Notes under the pieces: model-generated | Seen by the model: the letters and a program-made list of their open reading frames with translations, nothing else | What the model was told of the DNA's origin: nothing | The model's database searches: none | Program-made: the position numbers and the translations under genes | Shown: positions 3,133 to 64,000 of the stretch, piece after piece | Layout: the number at the start of each line of letters is the position of its first letter | Position numbering within the stretch: the stretch's first letter is position 1 | Source of the DNA: a virus | Lineage: Duplodnaviria > Caudoviricetes | Reading direction: 5' to 3' (one strand) | Length of the DNA: 64,000 bases | IMG/VR virus record: IMGVR_UViG_3300005282_000008 | Span: 1 to 64,000 of that record

Positions 3133-3417
3133 TTAATCCGGTTGACGATTATAAGTAAGCCATTTATCATAGATATTTTTCCAGAATTCAAAACCTTCAT
3201 TTCTAATTTCTGTTTCTTTCCATATAAATGAAACATTAAGAATATGAATGTCAGCATCTAAGATTATCTTTAATAAGACATCTGCGCCAATTTTTTTGGC
3301 ATGATCATAAACATTTTCCTTATATCTATCCCAAACTTTTTCTTGTTTCATAAATTCAATGAAATCATTTGGTAATTGTCTAAGAAGTTGTCTTTCTTTT
3401 AGTTCTGTAGGACTCAT
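3133..3417 (-). CDS. hypothetical protein, paralog of 4160..4444
   Basis: Shared F.W..T.....G..FW..I.DKW C-terminal motif. Confidence 0.7.
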   Translation of the reverse strand: MSPTELKERQLLRQLPNDFIEFMKQEKVWDRYKENVYDHAKKIGADVLLKIILDADIHILNVSFIWKETEIRNEGFEFWKNIYDKWLTYNRQPD

Positions 3418-3422
3418 TTTAT

Positions 3423-3852
3423 TTATGAATTGAATTTATTTTTATAGTCAATTATTAACTGATTATCTCTTAGAAAATCAGAACCAAGTATACCAATTAT
3501 TTTTATTCCTAATGCTAAGTTTAAATTCTGCATAGATATTGTTTTAAACTATATATGTAATACTATCTACTTTTACATTTATTGTAGAAGTTTGATATTC
3601 TAAGTTATAATTAATACTTGCAAAAGCTTTTGTATTATTTGGAGTATAATGCCCAATACTATTTAGATATTCAATTGATAACCAAGATGAATTACTTCCG
3701 GTATCTATTAAAAAATTACCTCGTTCTAGATGCACAATTGGTAAAGAAGATTTCTCTATAAATGTCATATTATTTAAAGTTGTTAATTCTAAACTATGAC
3801 TATTACAAGAAGTTACTAGAGCAACTAGTAATAATAAAATAAATTGTTTCAT
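3423..3852 (-). CDS. lipoprotein retropepsin-like aspartyl protease (split by 1-nt insertion near 3551)
   Basis: Lipobox VTSC and FLIDTGS catalytic motif; the GILGSDFL motif continues in another frame to a stop at 3423; span 430 nt = 143 codons + 1. Confidence 0.75.
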
Positions 3853-47384: not shown

Positions 47385-50300
47385 ATGAATAATAATAATA
47401 CTTATAACCGTAGTAAAGCCAATCCCATAACGAGATTGGCTAACTCGTTTCCACCAGTTACTTTGGGTTTTGCAGATAGATCTAAACTTGAAGAACAAAA
47501 AATAAGTAGTGAATACGAAAAATTTAGACAGTCTCCTGCAGCTAGAACTACTGAACCTAGTATTGATAATTTCAATCCTAAAGAAGAAGCTACTACTAGA
47601 CCGGTAAATCTTAGTACCGGAGATGTTATAAAACCAGAAGATTCTGAATTCGTATCTAGTATAAAAGAAGGTAATTCTTTAGATAATGCTTGGTTTTCTA
47701 CAGATCGTGCAAATGCGATGTATAATCAAGAACAAGCACAAATATCTCAACAGAATAAGAATCTTAAGAATGGAACAATAATTCCAACGGTTCCTCCAGT
47801 TGCTTCTGTAAAACAGAGTAACCAATCATACAATGTATTACAATACTTTAAGGATGCGTGGAGAGCAAACCAGAATGGTAAAGATGAGACTGATATTTCA
47901 AGTAAGAATGGTGAAATTATATCAGATATTCTTCCAAAACTAAATGCTGCACAAACACAATTAGAATATGCTACGACTTCTCAAAAATATGATGATCAGA
48001 TTAATAGTGTAATTGCTAACAAAATTGCAGGAAAAGGCGTTGGTAATTGGGATTCCGAGATAGCAAGGTTAACTAAAGAAAAGAGTCTTGCACTAGGTGG
48101 TATAAGTATTAGAGATAAAGCAAGTGCTCAGTATGTTAAGGATTTAGTTACATGGGATAAGTATATACAAGACCCCTCTAGAGTAATAGGACAACTTAAA
48201 GCAGATATCGGAAATAGAACTGCGCAATATAATGATAAATTAAACGAGATTAAACAACTACAGGATGATATAAACGATCGTCCAAAGGTTAGCGATTATT
48301 ATTTAAATAAGGAAAAGAATGCAGGCTTTGGCTATACTAACATAGATGCATGGTTATATGGTATGCCACGTACATTGGGATCTTCTATGCAAACATGGAA
48401 ACAGCAAGGTGCAAACATGTTATATAACTTTGGTGCTAGTTTGGCTCAAAAAAGTTTAATGGAAGATATGGCATTATCTGTTTCCGCTGCAACTGGTGGT
48501 TCCGGATTATATGCTAAAGCTGCTATAATGGGATTAAGTACCGTTGGTATGGGTCTGAATTTAGAGACACAAGCGTTATCTAGACATTTAGAAACTGATG
48601 CAGAACTTTATACTAACTATAAAGATAGAATAAAGAAAGATGCTGCAGCAAGAGGTATAGACACCAACAAATTGATAAATGATGCAAAAGATAAATTAAA
48701 AAATTATGTAGATACCGATTCTAATATTTCTAAGAAACCAGAAATAACTGATGATGAGGCTATGGATTTTTTGCTTACTACTAATTTAAAAAGCGGTGAT
48801 ACTAAATTTGATGCATTGAAAGATGATGGTAGAAAAGGTTTACAATCTCTTAGAAATGTCAATTATGGTTTAAGTGCATCAGATATTGCAGAGAGTATTG
48901 CCTTTGTACCTTATCTTGGTACCGTACTTGGAAACTCTTATAAAGCACTTAAGACTACAGAAAAACTTGGGAAAGGTATTGCAAGAACTGAACAAGCTGT
49001 TGAAGCAGCAAAAGGATTTGCAAAAGCATTACCTACAGAGATTGCTGGTAAAATACTAAATAGTGCAGTAGTTAAAGGTGCTACAAAAACAATTGAAGAT
49101 CTTGCTGAAAAGACTGTACTAAAAGTTCCAAAACTTACTGAGTTTGCCGGAAAGGTAGCTGAGAAGGTTGCTGGCGCTGATGGTAAAACTTATGCAAAAT
49201 ACGTAAAAGGTATTGCAAAACGTGGGTTATTTGGTATGGCTTCTGAAGGTGGTGAAGAAGGTACACAACAAGAGAAAGGTTATAAGTATCAGAATGGTCT
49301 GTATGATGATAAGACCATGGGATTCTTTGATACCGTTTCTGATGTAGTTGGAGGTATGTTTAATGGCGCCAAAACTGCATTTGGATTGAGTGTTAATCCC
49401 GCATTAGATAATGATCAGGATTATCAACAAAGTGTTGTTGCTGGTGCAATGATGGGTGGTTTATTTAGTGCAGTTGGTGGTATTCAACCAACCATTGAAC
49501 TTAAGAATCAGATACAAACCAATCACATTATTCAGAATTATACAGTAGACCAATTAAAAGCTAAAGAGAATTTAACAAAAGCTAATTTATGGACAGATAA
49601 AGCATTGAAAGGTAAAGGTGAACAGGTTATTAGTACTCTAGATATGATGAAAGAGAATCTACCTGAAGGACTTACTTCCAATGACGTTGACAATATAAAG
49701 AAACAAGCAGAGTATACCATGAATTATGCTAGTTCACCTATTGCTAAAAAGTTAGCAAAGGAATCTGGTATAACATATGGTTCGCAAGACTATAAAACGA
49801 TAGTTGGGCTTGCTCTAGATTCATTTGATCAATTACAAAATGAAGTTGATGCCAATAAAGCAATTGATGCTAAATTGACAAGTACAAGAACATTCGGTGA
49901 AGGTGCATTGAAAGGTAATTTAGAGAATATTAGTAAATACACTGGTATTGATTCAAATTTATTATTACAACTACACAACCTTAACCAACACCAACAATCT
50001 TTAGTATCTTTGATTGATGAATTAAAGAATAGGAAGACAGTCATTGATGAAATGAATGCAGATAAAGACTTTTCTATGTCTTTAAATAGTGACAAGATTG
50101 GTGAATACGTTGATAGGCTTAATGAAAAGTTAATAGATGTAACAAATAATCGTAATTCTTTTATAAGTGAATTTACTTCACAAATGAAAGTTGATAAAAA
50201 TACTATTGAAACTGGTAAAAGTCAAAAACCATATACAGAAGAAGAACTAACTGATGTACTTAATAGTTTATCTACAGTAGGTGGATATAAACAGAATGAA

Positions 50301-53300
50301 GTAACCGATCTTATAAAGATGCAAGAACTATCTAACTTATCGTTAGATGATACTATCAATAGATATAATGCGTATAATGGTTTATTCTTTAATGATAAAT
50401 ATGCAACTAAAGGTATATCTTTTGATAAGGCAACAAAAGATATGTCTAAAGTTGAAAGACGTAACTTTGCAGCATCAATGCTAGCAAAAGATGAGATAAA
50501 CCATTATGTTAGTAATACCAATAAAGATAAAGAAGGTATGGCTTCATATGTAGATGACATCTCAAAAGAAGCAAATGCTAGAGGTACGGTAGAATCATTG
50601 CAAGCAATAAGTCAACCAACTTCTGCATCAGAAATACAAAATACAGTTGCATCAGTACAGCCTTTAACCCATATTGAAGAGTCTACTCCAATAGAAGATA
50701 CACAGAAACAACAAGAAGTACATCTAGAAAGTTTAAAAACGCATATAGATGAAACTGGTAACATACTTACTACTTTAAAGAATAATCCTGAGAATACTAT
50801 AAAGTATTTACCAAAAGAACTTAGGAAAGAAGTTGGTAAGAATGGTTTTGTTAAAACCGTTAATAAGTATGAAAGACAATTAGATTCATTACAGACTGAA
50901 TATAATAAAGGTGTCACTAAAGCACCAACAGTAGATCCTACCGAAGTTAATCCAAAGAAGTTAGAAGTAGTTGAAAAGATTAAGAAAGCATATAACGACG
51001 TATCCTCTGCTTATGCTGATAGAACTAATGAACTTAATGATCTTGCTGCTAAAAATGGTGGTACAATTACAGATGAACAAGCACTTAGTGTTATTAATAG
51101 TTATCGTACTAGAATAAATGAAGCTACCTACAGACATCAGGACGCTTTAAAAGAATTAAATAAACCCGAGTACGTTAGTACTAAAGAACCAACTAGAGTA
51201 GAACAACCTAGTCATATTGCTGAACTTAGCAATGAGGAAGTTCAGCCATCTTTACCAGTTGAAGAGATTGTTCCAGTCGAGGAAGAACAACAACCTCAAA
51301 TGGAAATAAAAGCATCTGAGCAAGACGGATTTATGTCTACTCTAGATAAGATGGTTGCTGAATCTCCAGAGTTTAGAACATTGCCTGTTAATAAACAGCG
51401 TAATGAGATAAACAGGATGAGACGTAGGGCTTTGAAAGAAAATCCAGAACGTGAGACTGAAATTAAGACCTATTTCGATGATTTAATAAGCAAATCGATA
51501 GTTCCTTCACAGAAAGAACAAGAGTCGCTTAAAACGCCTAAGAATGCGCCACAGGAGGTATCTCCAACAACTGCTATTGAAACTCCAAAGGTAACTTCAA
51601 AAAAGTCATTAAATCAAATATTATCTGATAATGCTGCAGAAGGTAAACTTAGTGTTGAAAGTGGCGAGATTACACATACTGAAGAAAAACCGGTAGAAGT
51701 TGCACCAGAACCAATTGTTACTGAAAAGGAAACAATTAAAGTAGAACCGACTCCTGTTATTGCTCCAGAGGTTGAAGAAAAACCAGCGCAATGGGTAATA
51801 GATCAAGCAATGAATTTATTGGTTGATTCTGAACAAACTACTGAACAATTAAATGCTAAAATCTTAAGTAATGAGGTAGCACCTAATCAGATTGAAGGTA
51901 CCCCTGGTTCTATTATGGATATAATGTTAAATTATGATCCTACTAATAGTAAACCAATGACTATTGAAGGTTATCCGAATGTTAAATCAGGTAAAGAACT
52001 TGCTAAAGTTTTAGATAAACCAAATGCATTAGATGAACTTGATACTGAAATTGTAATTAGAGATTGGAAAAAGAATAGTAGTTTTGATCCAACTAAAGAA
52101 TCTACATATGATAATGCTGGTATTTATATAATACTTACCGATAAGAATGGTAATCAATACGCGACTGCATTAAGAACTACACAGTGGGTTAAAGATAATA
52201 TTGTTTCTGAAGAGGTAGGTAATAGGCTTAATGAACTTAGAACTAAGATTATTAGATTATCTGAACAGATTAAAAGTCAACCAAATGCCATATTGAAACC
52301 TACTAAAGTAAGTAGAAATAACGGTTTATTTGATAATCAAACTGATGCAAATGGTGCACCAATATATAGACCTATTCATGAAATAAAAGGGTTTGATATA
52401 CCTAAAGATTTTAAAGAAATCGATAAAGGTAGTGTAACATTAGGTATAGGTCGTGGAGTTAGATATGGTAATACTATTATGGATATGTTTGGTGATCCAT
52501 TACCAGGTGCTGGTGCTTCTGGTAAGATCTATATATATCCAAAAGTAACAAATGTACCAGATGGTAAATCAATGGTAAATATACAGTTACGAGAGAAACC
52601 ATTTAAAACTAGTGCACAATCTAGAGAGATTGCTTCATTGATTTATGATACTCTAATAACAAAGTATAATAATAATGACTTTGCTATGCAAGTTATGCAT
52701 AATGGTACATTGATAGATACTCCATTTACTCCATATGTGTTAGGTAGATTCTTAGTTAACAATAGTGAAAAGACATTATTGAAGACTGAGAGTATGGCTG
52801 AACAATATCCATTCTTGGCTGCAAAACAATTGTTTGTTGATACTAAGAATGGTAAAGTATATTATGGTAATGAAGTGCATACATTGTCTGATATGCAAAA
52901 TGATCCTAAGTTAAAAGAAGAATTTATTCAACATATTATAAATAATCAACACTGGGCAATGGACAAAGAGTGGTTATTTAATAATATGCGAGATAATTTA
53001 CTCGGATCTAAAGTTACTGCTACATCTTACTTTAATAAAACTAAATCTGATAAGTTATCTTTTATACCTGGAGAATTAGAATTTGATAAATCTGATTTTG
53101 GTTTAATCTCAGATCAATACGAAACGAAAGAAGATCCAAATGATAAAGGATTATCTTGGATGGCATGGTATACTAAAAATGGTAAATTAGTATCCGATTT
53201 AAGTGATAATTTATTTAAATCGCCAATAAATTATATTGAAGATGTCGAAATAGCACAAAAGACTAAAACGAGTTCACCAGAAATCATAGAAGCACAATCC

Positions 53301-56300
53301 ATAAAAGAAGAACAAGTTACTACAACTGAAGTAAAAGAAATACCAAACGTACCTGTTGAAGAAGAAAGACCAAAGTCTTTAAATAGTATATTGGCTGCTT
53401 TTGGAGATAAAGCTGAAGTTTCTACTGATGATCAGATTATACCCGATTCTGAATCAGTGTATACTGCTGATCAAAATGCTGATCTTGATGATATGCTTGG
53501 AGGTCTTGGTGTAGGTGCATGGAAACCTTTTATAAAAGCAACTAATCGTAAAATCAATACTGCAAAAGCAGTTAAATGGCTTAATCACAAACTTGGTTTA
53601 GATCCCAATGAAGTTAAGATCACTAGTACTCTTATACATGCAAATAAAGCAGGTATGAAGGTAGTTGGTGGTATGACCACCGATAGTATTTTACTTTGGG
53701 AAGGTGCTGAAAAGGGTGTTGAATATCATGAAGCATTCCATAGAGTTTCATTGTTATTGTTTAATGATAACGAAAGAAAGAACCTATACGATTACTATAG
53801 AAGTAAGAATAAGGTATATAAGATGTCTGATAAAGATGTTGATGAAAATCTTGCTGATGAATTCATGGACTTTAACTTAAACCCATTTATAAAACATGGT
53901 TATGAAATTGTTAGAGGATTTAAGAAAATGCTACAATTCTTACATGTTATAAAAGATGCAACTCCTAATCAAGCATATGAGGTATTTAGAGCCATCAATA
54001 GTGGTAAGTTTGCTGGTATCGCATACAATCCAAAATCAGTTGAAAGATTTCAACAGATATATGGAGATATGGCACCATATAGTTTTAATGGTAAAGCATT
54101 TAAGAATATTCCAACTTTAACTGACTATTATAACATTGTTGAGAGTTTGCAAGCTTTGTTATTCAGTTCTAATAATGTTGAAACTATACAAGATGTTGAT
54201 AACATTGATACTAATAGATTATACAATGCATTAGTTAAAGAATCAAATTCAGAATTACGAAGTCCTGCGCAACGTGAAACGTTAAAGGAAATTGTTGATA
54301 GATTTGAAACAGACTTTTTACCTGATGTAAAGAAATCTTTAAAACAATTTGCTATACGTGTTATAGATAGAAATAGCGCAGAAGAGACCGAAAAAGCTGA
54401 GAATGAAGGTACAAATGTACCATTTGCTGATAAAGCATCATACGAAGTAGATAAAGTTGATAATGCACAGATGTCTGTTAAGATGTTTATTGCTGCTACA
54501 CCAAAAGTTAAATTTGAATATAGTACCAAAGATGGTGTTTTACAAAAGAGATTAGTTGCAGCATCAGAACCTTTATCTGGTTTACCATTAATTGACGATT
54601 ATAAAACAGCATTTCATACAGTATTAGAAAGATTGCATAACTTTGATACATGGGATAAGATATTAAAAGAAACAGAACGTCTTGGTAAAGATGATCCGTT
54701 TTTTCAGAATCTATACTTAAGATTAAGCAATCCTCGAATTGTAAGTGAGAATTTACAAACACAGTTCTTAACTACAGTATGCAGTAATAAACATAACATG
54801 ATTTATTTAAGTTATGCTTATAACACCTCTCCAGTTGATGATAGAACTTTACAGGTATCTTTTAGAGTAGGTGATAGTAATATACAAAGAACTTCTAGGC
54901 AATATGCTAGTCAATGGAGTAACACTTTCTATAATGGAGATTTGTTAATATCAACTGAAAGTGGTATTGTTGCAAATGCTGATAAGTTGGAATCTATATG
55001 TAGAGAATATAATCAACTATCATCAGATTATTCTAAAGAATTTGATGCAAATAAGATTAATGATATAGGTGTAATAAATGCTAAAAAAGAACTTATTAAT
55101 ATTTTATCTAAACTTGGTGTTAACATTGACTTAGAAGTATTAAATGACTATCTTGCTCAGAATAACAAACTTGGCACAATGGATAAGGCTAAGGAACTTA
55201 GACATCTATTGACATCTAGTTACGCTGGTTCATTAAGTTACTTATTCTCATGGAATACTACCAAAACTAAAAATAGTAGAACTGGTTTATTACAATCTGT
55301 TGCTAATGGTGATGTATTGAAATATAAAGAAGGTGGTATTGAAAAAGTAAAACGTTTAAATGAAATATTTAAAGGTGAAGCTACAATCAATAAGTTTGCG
55401 GATAGTAATGCAAGAGTACACCCAAGATTAGATAGTATGTCAGTAATGGGTGCTGATGGTAATATGTTATATCCAATATCACAGAATTGTTATGCCACAG
55501 ATCAGACTAGATGGTTAAATGATAACAATGATGGTATTGTTGATAAGATGCAAAATGTTACATATAATAAACATTCTGTATTACTCCAGCATTTAAAGAA
55601 TGGTAATAAAATATCATTAAATACTTTTATTAACTTTGTAGAAGATTCTGCTGGTGATAGAGGTCGTGATTACTTAAGTATATCTGATTCTGAGGATTTC
55701 TTAAGTAAAATGACATTAGTTAGTAATGACTATTTAGTTTATCCTACAATGGCTGATAAAAAGATGTATTTTACCATCGGTGGTTATAAATTAAATCATC
55801 AGCCAATTAGATTTATAAATCGTGAAGATGGTAGAGGTAAATATGTTCAGTTTAATCAAGGTGTAGTAGATACTCTATATGGATATATGATTGATGAATT
55901 AAATACAATTGATCAATTCTATAGTAAAGAATCTCAAGAAGAACTTAGGTTGCATCCTGAAAAAGCAGTTAAGAATTATCATACTCTAGAGAAAGGTGGT
56001 AGACTTCGTTACTTTAATAAGATATATAAAGAAAATGCAGATGGTACTCGTACTATGATCGACTTGAATAAAGACATCATGGATGATAAGAGTATGACTG
56101 TTGAACAACGTATATCTAGAGTAAAAGAAGAGTTGCTTGGTAAACAGGATGCTACTGGCAAATATAACCAAATGCATGCAGAACAAGTTGTTAATAATAT
56201 GTTAGCAATGCGTTACATGGACGATATGAATAAAGCAGTTGAATTGGGTTTAATAGAAAAAACTGCTAATAACATGTATCAGAATAAGTTGTTAGACCAA

Positions 56301-59300
56301 GTTAAACTTGCTGAATATATGGATAAATATTCCAATGATCCTGTAACATCAGCATTCCCTGAAACTTATGCAGTACGTGCAATGTTAGCAGATTATTCAG
56401 TTGGTTCTGTTATATCAGTAATGGAGTTTGAAAAGTTGTTTACAAAAGATCCAGCATACTATAAAAACACTGATGATAAGATCAAACGTGTTACAGCAGT
56501 ATTATCAACTGGTGATGGAATAAGAACCCAATGGGAACCAGGTAATCCTGCAAATGGTGAAACTAAATTTAATGTAACTGAATTCAAAGATAATGAGATT
56601 GTAAGTAATCAAATTAAACAACTTAATGATGAATTTACATATGCTAATTTACGTGATTTACTTATAGCAACTTCTAAATATGATGGGAAACCTATTACAG
56701 AAAATAATGTAGATAAGTTATTAGAGTTAAGTGAAGAAGAAAGAAAGGATAAACTTAAAGACTATACTCAATTAAAAGCAAAAGCCTCAGCGCTTGCTAA
56801 TAACGGTTTGGATGCATATGGCCCAGGTAGAATTAATCAAACTGATGCTACTGTTATAATTGGTCCACGTATGTATCAGAAGATTGTAAAAGGTTTAGGA
56901 GAATGGTCAGAAGATGTTGCTAAAGCTTTTGAAATAATGGAAGGTGATGGTAATTTCTTATCAGATGCAGCATTATATCAAGCCTCTTTAAAGACTCTGA
57001 TAAAACCATTAAAAACAATGTACTTTGGTGATCACTTTGACGCCAAACTCGGATTAGATGTTCCAGTATTCAATAAAATGGCAATGTTCCCATTATTTAA
57101 AGTTTTAGCTAAAGGTGATAGTAGAACTTTATATGATAGAATGAATAAAGAAAATGATATCGTTGATATGGTAGCATTTTCATCAGCTGTAAAAGTTGGT
57201 ACTAAAAAAGCAAGTTCATTCTATACAGACAATACCAATACTGCAATAAACGATTTATCTGGAGTACAGGTATACCAACAGGATTACAAATATTTGCGTA
57301 GACAGTTAGTTACAGATCCACACCATGCTGAAAGACAGTTATTTGGTACGCAGGCTTCTAAAGCTGCTTTATCAAATCTTAGAATGGATAGAACTTATGG
57401 AGAAGGTGATAACAAATATACTGGTACTCAGATTAAATCTGAGGTTATGGGTACAATTAAAGCATTATCTAGTAAAGGTTTGAATAGATTCTTAGATAGC
57501 ATTACTAAAGTAAATGAAGATGGAAGTAGAACAAAAGATAATGTTCTACTATCTAAAATGCTTATACGTGAGGCCGAATCAGGCGGTATGACGAACGATG
57601 TCATTGAAGGCTTACAATTAGTCAATGGTGAGTTTAAAGTGCCTCTATCGGCTTTATCTGACGCCAAATGGATCGAGAGTAGGTTTATATCATTGTTGAA
57701 TAAAGAAGCAGTTGATATTCAACTACCAGGTGGTGCATTTATTCAAAGATCATCATTTGGTTTTAAACAAATAACTACTTTATCTGACGGCACTCTAGAT
57801 AGAGGTAAATATCTTAATTTTAGAAATGACGACGGTAGTATGGATACTGAAATATCTATAAACTTACTAGCGCATGTTATTCCTAATTATGATAAGATGT
57901 CTTTTGAAGAAGCTAGACAATACTTAATTGATAATAATATTATTGGTGAAAATTCATCGCCTAGTGCAATGGGTTATCGTATTCCTACACAGGGGCAGTC
58001 TTCAATTGTATCATTACGTATTAAAGAAGTAATGCCATCTATCGTTGGTGATATGATAATATTACCAGATGAATTTACAGCACTTACTGGTTCTGACTTT
58101 GATATTGATAAACTATATGTTGCTAGATTTAATTATGAAACATATGAAGAAGACGGCACTAAAAAGATTAGAAAAGTACAGTTTAATGACAATGTAGAAC
58201 AAGGTAAGAATAAGTTTGAAGAGAATGGCCGTGAAGCTAACGAAAATAGATTGTTAGATATGTATATGACAGTTCTTAATGATAAGTCAAATGTACATGA
58301 AACTAAAGCATCATTAGATGCACCAACTGAGAAATTAAAGAGTGGTGCATTAAAAGCAGTACGTGCTGCAATTACTTCAAAGAATGAAAGTCCTTTCTAT
58401 GAATTATCACCATCTTATCAGTTAAATAAGAAACATGAGTATACTGGTGGTAAAGCTGGCATTGCACCATTTGCGTTGAATAATGTGCATCATGTTTTAA
58501 CACAGTTATTTAATATAGATTTTGCAACTAATACAAAAGGTGAGTTTAAAGGTGCGCTTGGTAAATATGGATTTGGTACCTTATCAGAAATACATGGTAA
58601 GGATGGATTCCGTATTCTAGACTGGTTATCTGCTATGATTAATGCACACGTAGACGTTGCAAAAGATCCTTATATCATTGAGTTGAATGTTACACAACCG
58701 ACATATAATATGACTAACTTCTTATTAAGAAGTGGTATGGGTGAAGGTACATTTTATTTCTTACCACAACCTATTCTAAAAGAATATGTTACTGAAATGG
58801 AAAAACTTAATGGTCGATATGGTATTGATAAAACTAAGTCTAACTTTACATTACGTAGAGATGCTGTAACTGCATTAAAGAACAAGTATATTGAAAACGC
58901 TAGAGTTCTTGCTGGTGATAATAAGTCTAAACTAAGTTTATTAGAAGAATTAGATAATGTCGATGAAAGAAGTGGTTTAAACAAAGCTGGAGACCCGTAT
59001 GTATTTACTATTAAATTCTTAAATGACCAATTAACTTCTTTTAAAAATAAAACTAATGATTTTGATTATTTCTATAATCAGTTATTGATATTAAATGCTT
59101 ATCAAGAACTCACTCCATTTGCAGAAGAATTATCAGAACTGGTACATATCTCACAGATTGATACTAAGAAGTTTGGTAATAGTTTTGCATTACAACAGAG
59201 ATTCTTATATAGAGTAAGAAACATGTTATCTTCTACTAGTGCATTTGATAAAGAAGATCTTATAAGATTATTTGAAGATTCATTCTTAGATGCCAAATTA

Positions 59301-62300
59301 CGCAATAGTGTTATTGCTGGTAATGAATTAGCTAAAGATATGTTAATAACATCAACTGATGCTTTTAATCAGGAAATGGAATCAATAATGTCTAAAACTA
59401 ACCATAGTAAGACAAAGGATGAAACCTTTATTAAGAATGTATCTAATGGTATAGAAGCGTTTGTTAGAAGTAAATTCTTTACTGAATATGCTGCAGATAA
59501 TGCTGAAAATCCTTATATGGATACTTATAACTTATTCTATAATAATCCATCTGCTGGTACTTTAAGTATGGCAAACCGATTTGCTAAGATTAAGTCTGAT
59601 ATGATTAATGGTAAATATCCTGAATTCATAGATAAGGAAGGACGTATTGTTGATGATTTTATAAATTATCTATCTGCTCAACCAAAGACTGAGAATGATT
59701 TATGGAATATACCAGATGTAATTGGTCGTAATGTACCAATTGGTACTGATAAGTATTTACAAGATAAACTTACTAGTTATTGGAATGAACTTATTAATAA
59801 TAAACAATATCCTGAATTAGCACAGTTTGGTAAAGATCTAGTATACTATGCATTTGTGACATCTGGTGGTAATACTAAACTTAATTCTATATTTCATTTA
59901 GTACCATCTGATTACTTAGCTGAAATAGGTTATCATAATTCAATAAAACAATCTCTTGAAGATTTAACAAATAATTCATTTGATATTGACACTGATGATA
60001 TATTTAAAAACAATTGGTGGAATGGAAATCTAGTTCCTGATATTACTCTAGATAAGGGTAATAGTCATATTGCTAGAGTAAATTCTACTATAGAAATACC
60101 AGGCACTCATATTAAGTATCCGATTGTACTATTCAATCATAAAGCAAATCCAATAGGTATCAATAGCGATGGTGAAACTTTATTTAGACCTTATATTAAA
60201 GCTAACTTAGATAAATCTAAGAACCCTAATACAACTTTACTATATAAGTATATTGGTAATTATAATTATGTTTCAAACTTTGGAGGTAAAACAGAAGTGT
60301 CTGTAAAACCTGTATATGTTTTAGTTAATAAGAAAGGTTTAAGCCAAGAAGGTGTATTCATCGTAGAACATGATGGTTATAGTAATTCAGCATTTGGTTT
60401 TAATAACATACCAAGTGCAGTAGATTTCCATACTTCAGACCCTACTACTGGTTTTATGTTAGATGGCAGTAGTGCTGCAAATGTAGCATTAGTTAACTCA
60501 ACCAATCTACGTAGTACTGAAAAAGTAAAATTAATGTCAACTTTAAATAAGATTGAGTATATAAAGAACTTTGATATTGAAGATGCTGCTTATACTAAAA
60601 CTTATGATGATATTATGCTTGGTGAAGATAATGAATTATCTCAAGAAGAACAATTAGATATTGCTAGATCAGTATTACTTGCGGACGATGAAGCAGAAGG
60701 TGATATTGTTACTAATAAATTTAGAGGTAATACAGGTTGGGCTAGACACTCTGAAAATTCTTATGAAGTATCTTCTGCTGGAGATAATAGATTTAGTGCA
60801 TTAAGTGCTAGATTAAAAGATGGTAGAACTATAGAAGAAGCGTATCAATTAGATGTAAAAGGTTATCGTAATCTAAACTACACTTGGCAACAAGCAAAGA
60901 AAGATCATGGTGTAAATGCACCAATTAAATTAAATGAGGAGCAGTTATATAATGCATATAAAGAGTTGTGGCAACAATGGGCTGATGAGAATCCAGAGTT
61001 AATGCAAGAACTACGTAATAACACTGTTGATAAAATATTAACTGATAAATTTGCAACAGGTCTTGTTACACAAGCACGCGCGTTATCTGAGATATTAAAT
61101 GAAACTGAAGGCATATCTATGCCAATTGTAGATTCTGAAGTAAGAGATACCGATATTGCTAAACCGCAATACTATATTGGCAATATTACTCCAGATGAAA
61201 ATACTATATTTGTATTTGGAAGCAATCCGGTTGGTATAAATGGTAATCCAGCAAAAGGAACTGGTGGGGCTGCTTTAGTGGCATCTACACAATTTGGAGT
61301 AAAACAAGGAGAACGAATGGATAACAAGTTATCAGATTCTGGTAATGCGTATGGGTTAACTACTGTTACATACCCTGGTAGAAAGAGATCAATGTCTCCT
61401 GAACAAATTACGCAAGGTATTAAAAAGCTATATGAAACTGCAAAACTAAATCCAGATAAACAATTTAAGATTGCTTATAGGAATACTACTGAAAAATCAT
61501 TAAATGGTTATACTGGATTAGAAATGATTGATATGTTTAATGCTGCTGGAGAAATTCCTACCAATATTGTATTTAGTAAAGAATGGTTTGATACTGGTTT
61601 ATTAGACCTCGCTAAAGTAGTAGCAACAACAGAACAAGAAGTCGCACTATCCTTACCAGTGAATGGAAAAGAGGTTGTTTATAATAACCAAACCTTTATA
61701 GTTACACCGAATGGAAAAGTATATGGAAAAGATGGTAAAGAAAAGTATACTAGTACCGATAAAGGTACAATGCTATCTAAAAGTGCTATTTTAAATAAAG
61801 CATTTTTTCCATCTGCAACTTTACCAACAACAATTACTAAAAAGGCAAATCCCATTATTACAGATAATGGTATAAAAATATCTGGTGAGAATCCAAATAT
61901 TATAAATATAAATGGTAGACAAATTGATATAAAACAATATGGTGTTCCATTTAAACTTAATAGTGACCAAATAACAGCGTTAACTAGAATTGATGATTGG
62001 TATAACAATAGTGATACTATATCTCATACTTTAATAGGTGCTGCTGGTACAGGCAAGACGTCTATAACTAAAGTAATAGTAAATAGTATAGCTAGTCAAC
62101 ATCCTAGAGCAGATATAGTATTAGCATCATTTACACATAGTGCAGTTAAGAACTTAGCTAAACTTACAGGTAGAGAGGCAATTACTATTCATAGTATGCT
62201 TGGATTAAGTCTTAATTACGATCTTGATAACTTTAAATTAGACGATTTAAACTTTGAAAAAGTTAATGATGGTCATAAATTTGAAGAGAACGGTATCATT

Positions 62301-63461
62301 GTTATAGATGAGTGTTCTATGGTGAATGAGAACTTGGTAGAAGCTTTAAGGGATATTGCTAAAGAGAATGGTGTTAAGATCTTATTTATTGGTGATGATA
62401 AACAGTTAATGCCAGTAGGTGAGAATAGGATGTCATTATCATTTAGAGATGAAGATGGTAATATGTCTAGACTTACTAAAGTAGAAAGACAACAAGGTAG
62501 TAATCCATTATTAAAACAATTAGATGCTGCTAGAGCAAGTCAAGAAGATCCTACTAAGTTAGGTGTTAGTTTTAGTACAGATTATGACTCTTATGGTAAT
62601 GGAGTCGTTACAATACCTAATAAGAACCCTTATATGACTAACTTACTTGATACAATGGTTGGTTTACTTAAATCAGAGGAAGCTAAAACAAATCCTTATA
62701 TAATAAGAGGCTTAGCTTTTAGAAATGAAACAGTTGACGCTATAAATAGAGGTGTTAGAATAAGAATGGGTTACGAATCTAAACTGGAAGTTGGTGAACC
62801 AATTAAGTTCTATTCTGGTTCTGATAAGTTTACAAACTCGGCAGAAGCTAGAGTATCTAGAGTAAGTGAAGATAAAGAAGCCGACTTATTCTCAATATGT
62901 GGTTTTAAATCAAGTAAATACCCAAATGGGTTCATGGTTAAATATAATACCGTGGAAGTATCTGATTTTGATGATGCTACTTATAATGAAACTTTCCACA
63001 TGATATCTGATGAGTCTTATAAAAATGATTTAGCACAGATATACAAAGATTATCACGACCTTACTGTTAGAACTGCTGCTGCTAATCCTATGTATAGAGG
63101 TCGTATTTGGAGAGAGTATTATAAAAATACTGGTGCAATAGTAACTCCATACGATCTTAAAGTTGGTAGAGAATTAGTTAAAAAAGTAGTATTTAAACCA
63201 GCGTATGCATCTACAGTACATAAATCACAAGGATCTACTTATACTAATGTAATGGTTCATCAAGAAGATATAAATGCAGCAAGTGATCCTATGTTAAGGA
63301 AACAATTAACTTATGTAGCAATGTCTAGACCTACTAGAGCAGCATTCGTGGTAACTAATTCTGATCTATTCCACGAGAATGCAATTAATGAATATAATGA
63401 AGAAATGAATAAAGCAAATGATGAATTTGATTCTGATGCTATGACAAAATGTAAAGCTTAA
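47385..63461 (+). CDS. giant virion RNA polymerase polyprotein (zincin, two-barrel RNAP, NADAR-like, macro-like, Dda/RecD helicase)
   Basis: HEAFH (53727); RIPTQG and GSDFDIDK (58095); TIEEAYQ/ENPELM; IFVFGSN..G; GAAGTGKT, VIDECSM, GDDKQL, TVHKSQGSTY, YVAMSR. Confidence 0.9.
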   Translation: MNNNNTYNRSKANPITRLANSFPPVTLGFADRSKLEEQKISSEYEKFRQSPAARTTEPSIDNFNPKEEATTRPVNLSTGDVIKPEDSEFVSSIKEGNSLDNAWFSTDRANAMYNQEQAQISQQNKNLKNGTIIPTVPPVASVKQSNQSYNVLQYFKDAWRANQNGKDETDISSKNGEIISDILPKLNAAQTQLEYATTSQKYDDQINSVIANKIAGKGVGNWDSEIARLTKEKSLALGGISIRDKASAQYVKDLVTWDKYIQDPSRVIGQLKADIGNRTAQYNDKLNEIKQLQDDINDRPKVSDYYLNKEKNAGFGYTNIDAWLYGMPRTLGSSMQTWKQQGANMLYNFGASLAQKSLMEDMALSVSAATGGSGLYAKAAIMGLSTVGMGLNLETQALSRHLETDAELYTNYKDRIKKDAAARGIDTNKLINDAKDKLKNYVDTDSNISKKPEITDDEAMDFLLTTNLKSGDTKFDALKDDGRKGLQSLRNVNYGLSASDIAESIAFVPYLGTVLGNSYKALKTTEKLGKGIARTEQAVEAAKGFAKALPTEIAGKILNSAVVKGATKTIEDLAEKTVLKVPKLTEFAGKVAEKVAGADGKTYAKYVKGIAKRGLFGMASEGGEEGTQQEKGYKYQNGLYDDKTMGFFDTVSDVVGGMFNGAKTAFGLSVNPALDNDQDYQQSVVAGAMMGGLFSAVGGIQPTIELKNQIQTNHIIQNYTVDQLKAKENLTKANLWTDKALKGKGEQVISTLDMMKENLPEGLTSNDVDNIKKQAEYTMNYASSPIAKKLAKESGITYGSQDYKTIVGLALDSFDQLQNEVDANKAIDAKLTSTRTFGEGALKGNLENISKYTGIDSNLLLQLHNLNQHQQSLVSLIDELKNRKTVIDEMNADKDFSMSLNSDKIGEYVDRLNEKLIDVTNNRNSFISEFTSQMKVDKNTIETGKSQKPYTEEELTDVLNSLSTVGGYKQNEVTDLIKMQELSNLSLDDTINRYNAYNGLFFNDKYATKGISFDKATKDMSKVERRNFAASMLAKDEINHYVSNTNKDKEGMASYVDDISKEANARGTVESLQAISQPTSASEIQNTVASVQPLTHIEESTPIEDTQKQQEVHLESLKTHIDETGNILTTLKNNPENTIKYLPKELRKEVGKNGFVKTVNKYERQLDSLQTEYNKGVTKAPTVDPTEVNPKKLEVVEKIKKAYNDVSSAYADRTNELNDLAAKNGGTITDEQALSVINSYRTRINEATYRHQDALKELNKPEYVSTKEPTRVEQPSHIAELSNEEVQPSLPVEEIVPVEEEQQPQMEIKASEQDGFMSTLDKMVAESPEFRTLPVNKQRNEINRMRRRALKENPERETEIKTYFDDLISKSIVPSQKEQESLKTPKNAPQEVSPTTAIETPKVTSKKSLNQILSDNAAEGKLSVESGEITHTEEKPVEVAPEPIVTEKETIKVEPTPVIAPEVEEKPAQWVIDQAMNLLVDSEQTTEQLNAKILSNEVAPNQIEGTPGSIMDIMLNYDPTNSKPMTIEGYPNVKSGKELAKVLDKPNALDELDTEIVIRDWKKNSSFDPTKESTYDNAGIYIILTDKNGNQYATALRTTQWVKDNIVSEEVGNRLNELRTKIIRLSEQIKSQPNAILKPTKVSRNNGLFDNQTDANGAPIYRPIHEIKGFDIPKDFKEIDKGSVTLGIGRGVRYGNTIMDMFGDPLPGAGASGKIYIYPKVTNVPDGKSMVNIQLREKPFKTSAQSREIASLIYDTLITKYNNNDFAMQVMHNGTLIDTPFTPYVLGRFLVNNSEKTLLKTESMAEQYPFLAAKQLFVDTKNGKVYYGNEVHTLSDMQNDPKLKEEFIQHIINNQHWAMDKEWLFNNMRDNLLGSKVTATSYFNKTKSDKLSFIPGELEFDKSDFGLISDQYETKEDPNDKGLSWMAWYTKNGKLVSDLSDNLFKSPINYIEDVEIAQKTKTSSPEIIEAQSIKEEQVTTTEVKEIPNVPVEEERPKSLNSILAAFGDKAEVSTDDQIIPDSESVYTADQNADLDDMLGGLGVGAWKPFIKATNRKINTAKAVKWLNHKLGLDPNEVKITSTLIHANKAGMKVVGGMTTDSILLWEGAEKGVEYHEAFHRVSLLLFNDNERKNLYDYYRSKNKVYKMSDKDVDENLADEFMDFNLNPFIKHGYEIVRGFKKMLQFLHVIKDATPNQAYEVFRAINSGKFAGIAYNPKSVERFQQIYGDMAPYSFNGKAFKNIPTLTDYYNIVESLQALLFSSNNVETIQDVDNIDTNRLYNALVKESNSELRSPAQRETLKEIVDRFETDFLPDVKKSLKQFAIRVIDRNSAEETEKAENEGTNVPFADKASYEVDKVDNAQMSVKMFIAATPKVKFEYSTKDGVLQKRLVAASEPLSGLPLIDDYKTAFHTVLERLHNFDTWDKILKETERLGKDDPFFQNLYLRLSNPRIVSENLQTQFLTTVCSNKHNMIYLSYAYNTSPVDDRTLQVSFRVGDSNIQRTSRQYASQWSNTFYNGDLLISTESGIVANADKLESICREYNQLSSDYSKEFDANKINDIGVINAKKELINILSKLGVNIDLEVLNDYLAQNNKLGTMDKAKELRHLLTSSYAGSLSYLFSWNTTKTKNSRTGLLQSVANGDVLKYKEGGIEKVKRLNEIFKGEATINKFADSNARVHPRLDSMSVMGADGNMLYPISQNCYATDQTRWLNDNNDGIVDKMQNVTYNKHSVLLQHLKNGNKISLNTFINFVEDSAGDRGRDYLSISDSEDFLSKMTLVSNDYLVYPTMADKKMYFTIGGYKLNHQPIRFINREDGRGKYVQFNQGVVDTLYGYMIDELNTIDQFYSKESQEELRLHPEKAVKNYHTLEKGGRLRYFNKIYKENADGTRTMIDLNKDIMDDKSMTVEQRISRVKEELLGKQDATGKYNQMHAEQVVNNMLAMRYMDDMNKAVELGLIEKTANNMYQNKLLDQVKLAEYMDKYSNDPVTSAFPETYAVRAMLADYSVGSVISVMEFEKLFTKDPAYYKNTDDKIKRVTAVLSTGDGIRTQWEPGNPANGETKFNVTEFKDNEIVSNQIKQLNDEFTYANLRDLLIATSKYDGKPITENNVDKLLELSEEERKDKLKDYTQLKAKASALANNGLDAYGPGRINQTDATVIIGPRMYQKIVKGLGEWSEDVAKAFEIMEGDGNFLSDAALYQASLKTLIKPLKTMYFGDHFDAKLGLDVPVFNKMAMFPLFKVLAKGDSRTLYDRMNKENDIVDMVAFSSAVKVGTKKASSFYTDNTNTAINDLSGVQVYQQDYKYLRRQLVTDPHHAERQLFGTQASKAALSNLRMDRTYGEGDNKYTGTQIKSEVMGTIKALSSKGLNRFLDSITKVNEDGSRTKDNVLLSKMLIREAESGGMTNDVIEGLQLVNGEFKVPLSALSDAKWIESRFISLLNKEAVDIQLPGGAFIQRSSFGFKQITTLSDGTLDRGKYLNFRNDDGSMDTEISINLLAHVIPNYDKMSFEEARQYLIDNNIIGENSSPSAMGYRIPTQGQSSIVSLRIKEVMPSIVGDMIILPDEFTALTGSDFDIDKLYVARFNYETYEEDGTKKIRKVQFNDNVEQGKNKFEENGREANENRLLDMYMTVLNDKSNVHETKASLDAPTEKLKSGALKAVRAAITSKNESPFYELSPSYQLNKKHEYTGGKAGIAPFALNNVHHVLTQLFNIDFATNTKGEFKGALGKYGFGTLSEIHGKDGFRILDWLSAMINAHVDVAKDPYIIELNVTQPTYNMTNFLLRSGMGEGTFYFLPQPILKEYVTEMEKLNGRYGIDKTKSNFTLRRDAVTALKNKYIENARVLAGDNKSKLSLLEELDNVDERSGLNKAGDPYVFTIKFLNDQLTSFKNKTNDFDYFYNQLLILNAYQELTPFAEELSELVHISQIDTKKFGNSFALQQRFLYRVRNMLSSTSAFDKEDLIRLFEDSFLDAKLRNSVIAGNELAKDMLITSTDAFNQEMESIMSKTNHSKTKDETFIKNVSNGIEAFVRSKFFTEYAADNAENPYMDTYNLFYNNPSAGTLSMANRFAKIKSDMINGKYPEFIDKEGRIVDDFINYLSAQPKTENDLWNIPDVIGRNVPIGTDKYLQDKLTSYWNELINNKQYPELAQFGKDLVYYAFVTSGGNTKLNSIFHLVPSDYLAEIGYHNSIKQSLEDLTNNSFDIDTDDIFKNNWWNGNLVPDITLDKGNSHIARVNSTIEIPGTHIKYPIVLFNHKANPIGINSDGETLFRPYIKANLDKSKNPNTTLLYKYIGNYNYVSNFGGKTEVSVKPVYVLVNKKGLSQEGVFIVEHDGYSNSAFGFNNIPSAVDFHTSDPTTGFMLDGSSAANVALVNSTNLRSTEKVKLMSTLNKIEYIKNFDIEDAAYTKTYDDIMLGEDNELSQEEQLDIARSVLLADDEAEGDIVTNKFRGNTGWARHSENSYEVSSAGDNRFSALSARLKDGRTIEEAYQLDVKGYRNLNYTWQQAKKDHGVNAPIKLNEEQLYNAYKELWQQWADENPELMQELRNNTVDKILTDKFATGLVTQARALSEILNETEGISMPIVDSEVRDTDIAKPQYYIGNITPDENTIFVFGSNPVGINGNPAKGTGGAALVASTQFGVKQGERMDNKLSDSGNAYGLTTVTYPGRKRSMSPEQITQGIKKLYETAKLNPDKQFKIAYRNTTEKSLNGYTGLEMIDMFNAAGEIPTNIVFSKEWFDTGLLDLAKVVATTEQEVALSLPVNGKEVVYNNQTFIVTPNGKVYGKDGKEKYTSTDKGTMLSKSAILNKAFFPSATLPTTITKKANPIITDNGIKISGENPNIININGRQIDIKQYGVPFKLNSDQITALTRIDDWYNNSDTISHTLIGAAGTGKTSITKVIVNSIASQHPRADIVLASFTHSAVKNLAKLTGREAITIHSMLGLSLNYDLDNFKLDDLNFEKVNDGHKFEENGIIVIDECSMVNENLVEALRDIAKENGVKILFIGDDKQLMPVGENRMSLSFRDEDGNMSRLTKVERQQGSNPLLKQLDAARASQEDPTKLGVSFSTDYDSYGNGVVTIPNKNPYMTNLLDTMVGLLKSEEAKTNPYIIRGLAFRNETVDAINRGVRIRMGYESKLEVGEPIKFYSGSDKFTNSAEARVSRVSEDKEADLFSICGFKSSKYPNGFMVKYNTVEVSDFDDATYNETFHMISDESYKNDLAQIYKDYHDLTVRTAAANPMYRGRIWREYYKNTGAIVTPYDLKVGRELVKKVVFKPAYASTVHKSQGSTYTNVMVHQEDINAASDPMLRKQLTYVAMSRPTRAAFVVTNSDLFHENAINEYNEEMNKANDEFDSDAMTKCKA

Positions 63462-63465
63462 AATT

Positions 63466-64000
63466 ATGATGTGTCCTATTTTAACAATCCCACAGGTTGC
63501 TCAAGAATTTAATGAGCTAGTACAAGCAGTTGGGGAAAAAGCTGCATATGATATATGGAATCAGAATAATGGTAATGGTATAGAGAGTGCTCCTAATGGA
63601 GCACCTTCTAAGCTATTTTCAGACCTTCTAAGCGAGTTTGATGGTAATCGCGAACTAACTATCAAAGCGAAGGCTAAAACCTTCTCTAAAGAGTTTAAAA
63701 CATGGTTTAATGATGAAATTCCAATATTTGATCCTAATACTGGTGAAGTACTGAGAATAGATACTGTTTCTTCTAAAGTAGTAGACGAAAATGGAGAACC
63801 ATTAATAATGTGGCATAGAACTCCTGTAAAAAATATAAAAGAATTTGATATAAACAAAACAGATGGAGACGATGGTTTTTGGTTTAGTAGAGATAAAAAT
63901 TATTATACAGATGATAACAAAGTAGAAGCATATCCTGTATTTTTGAAAATATCGAACCCTTTTGAAATAAATCATTCTGACTTTTTAGCTGGTATGGATG
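63466..64000 (+). CDS. cargo protein, partial, with ART-PolyVal-like ADP-ribosyltransferase domain
   Basis: Open to the window end; APNG.PSKLF...FKTWF...SKVVDENGEPLIMWHRT...GFWFS...YPVFLKISNP. Confidence 0.75.
   Translation, partial: MMCPILTIPQVAQEFNELVQAVGEKAAYDIWNQNNGNGIESAPNGAPSKLFSDLLSEFDGNRELTIKAKAKTFSKEFKTWFNDEIPIFDPNTGEVLRIDTVSSKVVDENGEPLIMWHRTPVKNIKEFDINKTDGDDGFWFSRDKNYYTDDNKVEAYPVFLKISNPFEINHSDFLAGMD

Follow-up and report, generated by a model that had tools for sequence, protein, structure and literature searches.

Predicted NADAR-fold and macro-fold domains in the tail of a crAss-type virion RNA polymerase polyprotein, next to an ART-PolyVal protein

In this work we describe the accessory domains at the end of a giant virion RNA polymerase (RNAP) gene in the IMG/VR virus record IMGVR_UViG_3300005282_000008. 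The stretch that we analysed, called the window from here on, is the first 64 kb of this 95,193-bp record, has a G+C content of about 30% and shows a crAss-like layout of late genes. The RNAP gene is an uninterrupted open frame on the plus strand (47385..63461) and encodes P0001, a protein of 5358 residues. Its RNAP catalytic region (56808..58205, residues 3142-3607) was found by a phmmer match (E 1e-43) to 6vr4_A, which is gp66, the virion RNAP of Cellulophaga phage phi14:2, and the catalytic-type motif DFDID lies at residue 3571 (58095-58109). By sequence similarity P0001 is a crAss-type virion RNAP polyprotein. Three modules with low-complexity linkers between them make up its last ~990 residues: a predicted NADAR-fold domain (60738..61106), a predicted macro-fold domain (61182..61592) and a helicase of the SF1B Dda/RecD2-like type (61905..63380). 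They are followed by the start of the next cargo-type protein (63466..64000), which carries an ART-PolyVal domain and is cut by the window end. All of these features are on the plus strand. A preliminary description of the sequence had pointed out NADAR-like, macro-like and ART-PolyVal motifs here by eye. We find these motifs in P0001 and in the next open reading frame (ORF; SKVVDENGEPL..WHRT..GFWFS, from 63466), and they are not chance patterns, as each belongs to a protein family that can be defined by profile searches.

The first module, YEVSSAGDNRFSA...DGRTIEEAYQLDVKG...WADENPELMQEL, spans residues 4452-4574 of P0001. Its sole library match is phrog_9995 (E 1e-40), a family of unassigned function. 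Among 1.84 billion representative proteins we detected 593 relatives at E<=1e-3, which are either free-standing proteins of 125-170 residues or parts of giant proteins of 2000-7000 residues. In an alignment of 36 family members, using domain numbering, the invariant or nearly invariant residues are E22, S24, D28 and S32 in YEVSS.GD.RFSA, E45, Q49 and K53 in TIEEAYQLDVKG, and furthermore W90, D115 and F117 in LTD.FA, Q124 and A125. In P0001 numbering, E4484, Q4488 and D4554 are invariant across the family and K4492 is at least 90% conserved.

The AlphaFold2 (AF2) model built from this alignment has a pLDDT of 90.5. An exhaustive VIA comparison with 48,161 representative PDB chains placed the three solved NADAR representatives at the top, namely G. 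lovleyi NADAR 8bat (Z 8.8, root-mean-square deviation (rmsd) 4.2 over 132 residues), E. coli YbiA 2b3w (Z 7.5) and P. nicotianae 8bau (Z 7.3), with the fourth match at Z 3.9. In Foldseek the best match was 8bat (E 0.028, probability 1.0), followed by 8bau. Among the predicted viral structures in BFVD, the matches beyond the family itself were enriched in annotated NADARs of giant viruses and nidovirus replicases. By its predicted structure the first segment is a very divergent NADAR-fold domain, so that at the level of the fold the call made by eye is borne out. We also considered that this segment might be a helical linker only, and rejected this for a conserved, confidently folded and independently mobile domain.

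At the sequence level the distance to known NADARs is large. The Pfam NADAR family PF08719 did not match the domain at E<=1, nor any of the 36 family members, and gave no match at E<=10 across the whole phage genome; by this profile test the domain is outside PF08719. Searches of PDB sequences with phmmer and profile hmmsearch returned chance matches only for this domain and for the macro-like one, and no NADAR chain. The ESM Atlas gave no usable match. Alignments with hhalign of both family alignments against single sequences (YbiA, T4 AdfN and phiKZ AdfM) were insignificant, with short local alignments on the expected motifs, and the global mode gave no useful alignment.

NADARs use the Glu and Lys of a central motif together with an acidic residue of the last motif for catalysis (PMC11543638, Schuller et al.). 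In the E. coli C7 NADAR the Glu and Lys are E88 and K95, and D171 / E125 stand for the position in the C-terminal motif, which can be acidic or His. At this last position YbiA-type NADARs have Glu, those associated with DarT1 have Asp, and phage NADARs of the T4 type have His (PMC11543638). The family described here appears to carry an acidic residue at this position. It shares with AdfN (T4 gp30.3), other phage NADARs and the DarG1 NADARs (PMC11257639, PMC11543638) the predicted fold, apparently the central-helix Glu, Gln and Lys, and the fact that it is phage-encoded, and we suggest that a NADAR-like active site has probably been kept. Unlike these proteins, it has no detectable sequence similarity to any Pfam-recognised NADAR, its Lys is one residue further from the Glu, and the domain is shorter (~125 residues). 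In addition, the copy studied here is embedded in a virion RNAP polyprotein of 5358 residues rather than being free-standing, and its activity is a prediction.

The second module, IFVFGSNPVGINGNPAKGTGGAA, covers residues 4600-4736. It matches the NCBIfam family NF049995, 'A1S_2505 family phage non-structural protein, N-terminal', with 48.1 bits against a cut-off of 45, and also phrog_2072, whose function is unassigned. The family has 320 relatives of 94-300 residues with 50-65% identity, nearly all of them unnamed. The AF2 model has a pLDDT of 88.8, and the best 30 PDB matches found by Foldseek are almost all macrodomains (best E 8e-4, prob 1.0), including alphavirus nsP3, TARG1 and designed proteins derived from macrodomains. 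Foldseek on the two segments thus returned NADARs and macrodomains as the top matches, which is one of the checks that the preliminary description had named. Similarly, the top 29 VIA matches of the second model are almost all macrodomain chains, among them 4gua (Z 10.8), M. tuberculosis DarG 5m3i (Z 10.6, rmsd 3.1, 130 residues), TARG1 (Z 10.3) and Poa1p (Z 9.9). The second segment is, as far as its predicted structure tells, a macro-fold domain of the TARG1/DarG branch, again very divergent. Neither this domain nor any of 47 family members matched the Pfam Macro clan (PF01661) at E<=1, and the ESM Atlas offered nothing beyond unnamed clusters of its own and a near-miss to DUF7831.

The macro-like family shows the pattern N..G..G.GAA and a conserved G-x-E. 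The loop-1 Asn, N4614, is invariant and G.GGAA is conserved; both align to the motifs NAAN...GGGV and NTVN..GKGIA. Among 121 members two subgroups can be distinguished, while the remaining 2 of the 121 are fragments without the N-terminal part. In subgroup 1 (82 members) the central strand is followed by A-L-P-T-K-D and loop 1 is short, and this PTK context is that of the catalytic lysine in DarG, TARG1 and phiKZ AdfM ('FPTKD'). Subgroup 2 (37 members), to which the phage copy belongs, has no PTK lysine; its loop 1 holds an insert of 10 residues (NPxKGTGG), one of them a conserved basic residue. The insert is found in 37 of the 37 complete lysine-less members, so lysine loss and insert co-vary without exception. 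The pattern suggests that subgroup 2 is a candidate for a relocated active-site residue. Compared to AdfM (phiKZ gp104), DarG2 and TARG1 (PMC13309987), the likeness lies in the macro fold, for which DarG 5m3i and TARG1 rank among the best matches, in the loop-1 N..G..G.G.A motif and in the conserved G-x-E at the TARG1 Asp position; the PTK lysine context occurs in the larger sister subgroup and not in the phage copy. The phage copy differs from these proteins in being recognised neither by Pfam Macro nor by the PADLOC DarG models, in its Val at the lysine position together with the 10-residue NPAKGTGG insert in loop 1, and in its fusion to an RNAP polyprotein.

A faint similarity was also seen between the macro-like family and DUF7831 (PF25176), which has the motif FVFGDN..GHGGQA and is fused to a NADAR-like domain in one protein (P0182). 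DUF7831 is also present in proteins of gut crAss phages. From its sequence it may be a further unrecognised macro-like family.

The carrier of both domains can be compared with phi14:2 gp66 (PDB 6VR4) and the cargo proteins gp47, gp49 and gp50 of crAss001. It shows clear sequence similarity and shares an RNAP core with DFDID, and the gene lies within the structural and cargo block, as is the case for crAss-like virion RNAPs. In contrast to the 5358-residue fusion, phi14:2 gp66 (a 2194-residue chain in 6VR4) is without the C-terminal NADAR-like, macro-like and helicase modules. The helicase (residues 4841-5332) is recognised by Pfam, NCBIfam and PHROG models, with matches to AAA_30 (E 1e-24), UvrD_C_2 (E 9e-11) and phrog_325 'Dda-like helicase' (E 2.5e-81) and a partial match to TIGR01448 RecD2. 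The RNAP and helicase carrier that the preliminary description had proposed is therefore present. The first ~4370 residues of P0001 (47385-60494) have no Pfam or PHROG match, the RNAP similarity at 3142-3607 excepted, and more than 3000 of these residues lie upstream of the RNAP core. A megablast search of the region against GenBank phages gave no match, PHROGs and Pfam gave nothing useful on the neighbouring ORFs, and PADLOC called no system, including no DarG match.

The ORF downstream begins 5 bases past the P0001 stop codon, ends at genome position 67545 and encodes 1359 residues. Within the window it already matches Pfam ART-PolyVal (PF18760) with 46.8 bits, above the gathering score; on the full ORF the match reaches 71 bits (gathering score 31.2, E 2e-19) and covers profile positions 1-140 of 140 at residues 107-244, so that the third call made by eye is confirmed over the full length of the domain. 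In an alignment of 49 ART-PolyVal domains, the lead-in SKVVDENGEP as well as F127, G137 and F140 (GFWFS) are conserved and H117 is invariant. The candidate for the catalytic Glu is E221, which precedes NPNQIKSA in a part where the alignment is poor. An HExxH motif, HEVVH, is found at residue 366, beyond the window. Its body corresponds to a gene conserved in crassviruses, with relatives in 31 GenBank phage records, including Cellulophaga phages; in one record the relative is annotated 'RNAP associated protein fused to zincin protease'. A sequence search of the PDB with the ART domain found nothing. ART-PolyVal is present in many crAss-like genomes, and 401 genomes of the phylum of a Flavihumibacter metagenome-assembled genome (MAG) gave 3 matches only.

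Three frame changes within ~110 bases (at ~67.5 kb) break the ART gene of this record into parts of 1359 and 411 residues. A near-identical genome has an intact protein of 1808 residues (P0275), the rest being identical at the protein level, and the split is probably a sequencing or assembly artefact in the record. On another contig, a protein of 1422 residues (P0285) has ART-PolyVal fused to an SF1 helicase (AAA_30, PIF1, UvrD_C_2), which echoes the helicase-then-ART gene order of the phage.

The arrangement resembles the polyvalent proteins and virion-packaged NAD/ADP-ribose domains (PMC5512222, PMC9503650) and T4 Alt, which are multi-domain and delivered with the DNA, as would be the case here. 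Its predicted modifying enzyme is ART-PolyVal, and a zincin peptidase motif lies next to this domain. The arrangement differs from them in that the carrier is the crAss-type virion RNAP itself together with an SF1B helicase, and in that both eraser-type domains come from families that are not annotated as such in public libraries.

How could these domains function together? We propose that the tail of the packaged RNAP polyprotein is an accessory block of three independent modules, the NADAR-like domain, the macro-like domain and the Dda-like helicase, and that the neighbouring protein, conserved and RNAP-associated, gained an ART-PolyVal ADP-ribosyltransferase at its N terminus as well as a zincin motif. 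The modules would enter the cell with the DNA as virion cargo. RNAP-module proteins of crAss001 are virion cargo that is ejected before or with the DNA (PMC10172136), and for phi14:2, too, the RNAP is known to be in the virion and to be ejected into the host. Since crassvirus RNAP-module proteins have this role in cultured phages, the domains would be present ahead of any phage gene expression. Both hydrolase-type domains may then strip ADP-ribose that DarT-type defences put on incoming phage nucleic acid or proteins; base N-glycosidic adducts would be the targets of the NADAR-like domain, and other ADP-ribose linkages or products those of the macro-like domain. The ART would modify host targets, like T4 Alt. 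On balance, and with moderate confidence, we lean towards this account of anti-defence erasers and a host-modifying ART, in which we infer activity, substrates, packaging and the anti-defence role. The literature background given in the preliminary description is correct: NADAR domains reverse DarT1 and macrodomains reverse DarT2 DNA ADP-ribosylation (PMC11543638, PMC11257639, PMC13309987). Two phage anti-DarT factors are established by experiment, the NADAR AdfN (PMC11257639) and the macrodomain AdfM (PMC13309987). According to a prediction by Iyer et al. (Aravind's group), virions package ART, Macro and NADAR domains for early action, and tandem NADAR+Macro proteins were noted by the same authors in 2022 (PMC9503650). 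DarT was found in 34 of the 401 sampled genomes of the Flavihumibacter MAG phylum, the Bacteroidota. Judging by host names, this is also the host phylum of the cited Cellulophaga and Bacteroides crAss-like phages, which makes pressure from DarT plausible.

Several points weigh against this account. Neither eraser-type domain is called NADAR or macro by any curated model in Pfam, NCBIfam or PADLOC. Profile-profile support is insignificant for the NADAR-like domain and weak for the macro-like one, and homology thus rests on predicted structures. For the NADAR-like family, we collected 28 canonical NADARs from bacterial genomes, together with YbiA and T4 AdfN, and hhalign against this set gave a Prob of 0.8%, which is not significant. 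In favour of the account, this non-significant alignment is colinear when extended and the invariant residues of the family fall on NADAR motifs, pairing RFSA with FSNF, DGR with DG, T-I-E-E-A-Y-Q...K with T-x-E-H-Y-F-Q-A-x-K and ENPxL...GKxLTD with QHPxL...TGxxLVE. For the macro-like family, the comparison with a mixed alignment of 30 MacroD-type, DarG-like and other sequences reached E 9e-4 at a Prob of 23% over 136 colinear columns, where FVFGSN..G..G.GGAA lies on the N...GGG motif of loop 1 and SLNGYTG.E on the second glycine loop. The phage macro copy has V4661 (GLTT-V) at the position of the catalytic lysine, which is K80 in DarG and K84 in TARG1. The packaging of P0001 is deduced by analogy from its relatives only, through homology and gene position. 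Finally, the fusion to a packaged protein may serve delivery only and carry little information on the substrate. As candidate substrates of the eraser-type domains we consider DNA bases, RNA, protein and small ADP-ribose derivatives.

The last of these candidates leads to the alternative that survives best. Here both domains would degrade small molecules derived from ADP-ribose, such as cyclic ADP-ribose isomers, ADP-ribose-1''-phosphate or other defence signals and toxins, and would blunt TIR/SLOG-type signalling from time zero. This role was proposed by Iyer et al. 2022 for most phage Macro, NADAR and SLOG domains (PMC9503650). It fits with the co-occurrence of the NADAR-like domain with the SLOG sensor-type domains cpYpsA and YAcAr and with DUF4326 in bacterial and viral proteins. 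The missing DarG/TARG1 lysine in the phage macro copy would suit another substrate, and the ADP-ribose-1''-phosphatase Poa1p is among the top structural matches. However, all phage NADARs tested so far act on DarT1-modified DNA and the tested phage macrodomain on DarT2-modified DNA, and the NADAR-like domain adjoins nucleic-acid enzymes, that is RNAP and helicase here and a DNA polymerase gene in phiKZ-like phages. We consider it a possible but rather unlikely explanation.

To see how the modules assort, we took 80 IMG/VR loci with a NADAR-like domain and scanned 10 kb on each side of the match with simple profiles. In 15 of the 80 a crAss-type RNAP can be detected in the giant ORF that holds the NADAR-like domain, which stands before, inside or after the RNAP region. 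These varying positions indicate repeated, independent insertion into crAss RNAPs. One might go further than delivery and ask, in line with the preliminary description, whether the eraser domains act in cis, with the injected RNAP and helicase clearing ADP-ribose from template bases during unwinding. If this were true, early transcription would be intrinsically resistant to DarT-type defence, the polyprotein would be a transcription-coupled de-ADP-ribosylation machine, and the repeated NADAR-like insertion into crAss RNAPs at different positions would be explained. We regard this as a speculative extension of the eraser account, and an improbable one.

The question whether the ART and the erasers belong together is also addressed by these loci. 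In such a matched pair the ART would be a weapon and the erasers would shield the phage RNAP or DNA from it or reset it, in a manner similar to a toxin and its antidote. ART-PolyVal does adjoin the eraser-type domains in our phage, and a clear ART-PolyVal was found within 10 kb in two of the 80 loci: in L140 it lies in the same ORF (ART 1797-1923, then NADAR-like 2032-2183) and in L096 in the next ORF. RefSeq gut crAssphage cr116_1 moreover has both an ART and a macro-like domain in gp051, a protein of 2507 residues with ART-PolyVal at 236-388, a PTK-type macro-like domain at 969-1120 and the RNAP start. But beyond the two clear cases there are 2 further weak ones among the 80 loci, the macro-like domain is found in 3, and many crAss phages have ART-PolyVal without a detected eraser. 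The three modules look like independently assorting plug-in modules rather than a matched pair, for which the counts give partial support, and we think a matched pair quite unlikely. Of the writer/eraser set in the preliminary description, the side-by-side placement of the domains stands. As writer and erasers occur mostly apart across related loci, the coordinated set is less likely than independent modules.

It is equally doubtful, in our view, that one or both domains are non-catalytic and serve as a sensor, sponge or tether for ADP-ribose or nucleotides, or as a structural or packaging domain. Many macrodomains are readers only. The macro-like copy is missing the canonical catalytic lysine, and homology to catalytic families is visible by fold alone. 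Against this, the NADAR-like family appears to keep its invariant acidic, Gln and Lys residues at the positions of the NADAR catalytic motifs, and the co-varying insert of the lysine-less macro subgroup suggests a relocated functional residue. Both domains are also common as free-standing small proteins, unlike a packaging spacer. An RNA-repair route, in which the domains would process the ADP-ribose 1''-2'' cyclic phosphate or 1''-phosphate from 2'-phosphate removal on cleaved tRNA, is very improbable: the literature ties Macro and NADAR to KptA-type RNA repair (PMC9503650) and Poa1p is a strong structural match, but a scan of P0001, P0003 and three flanking ORFs, which did not extend to the whole genome, found no KptA or RNA ligase, and the location on injected proteins speaks for a function at a very early stage.

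Among the phages of the human gut Crassvirales dominate, and their giant packaged proteins are mostly unannotated. The eraser account gives a testable function to two large unassigned phage families, phrog_9995 with its 593 representative relatives and A1S_2505_Nterm/phrog_2072. Members of these families also occur in phiKZ-like and N4-like phages, including the protein beside the phiKZ-type DNA polymerase, and the candidates for anti-DarT or anti-ADP-ribosylation factors are extended beyond AdfN and AdfM. It also suggests that crAss RNAP polyproteins are platforms on which counter-defence enzymes are delivered. The lysine-less macro subgroup with its co-varying insert offers a natural case for the rebuilding of macrodomain active sites. 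The concept itself is already published, as packaged early-acting ART, Macro and NADAR domains were predicted and phage NADAR and macro anti-DarT factors are known. In our literature search we found no report of phrog_9995 as a NADAR fold or A1S_2505_Nterm as a macro fold, of the lysine-less loop-insert macro subgroup, or of recurrent embedding of NADAR-like and macro-like domains in crAss virion RNAP polyproteins. The phrog_9995 family may already have been counted among the NADARs by Iyer et al.

Outside the crAss-type polyproteins the NADAR-like domain is found in other settings. In bacteria it is rare, with 12 loci in ~185,000 genomes. Giant cyanobacterial proteins of 1500-3300 residues combine it with an SF1 helicase, RNase H/RVT_3 and the SLOG domain cpYpsA, and look like polyvalent proteins of integrated or conjugative elements. 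The other bacterial context is DUF4326 and YAcAr; DUF4326 is carried by 6 of the 36 aligned family members. A free-standing copy is among the early genes of an N4-like phage. In GenBank phages the domain is a 'hypothetical protein' of phiKZ-like jumbo phages, encoded directly after the DNA polymerase gene.

In 201phi2-1 this homologue is an ordinary gene of its own, gp143, which follows the polymerase gene; the product of the latter, gp144, is annotated as DNA polymerase and is homologous to phiKZ gp082. In phiKZ (AF399011.1, 79876-80244) the NADAR-like copy is a 122-codon open frame without an ATG, GTG or TTG start. It starts at the last base of the gp082 stop codon, in a different frame, and its last 38 codons alone are annotated (PHIKZ082.1). 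This may reflect an unusual start, a frameshift or an annotation gap. Another viral contig, IMGVR_UViG_3300034349_000079 (83.6 kb), has three free-standing macro-like paralogues, one NADAR-like domain and one canonical NADAR within 11 kb. The presence of a divergent and a canonical NADAR in one phage contig indicates that the two are probably not redundant.

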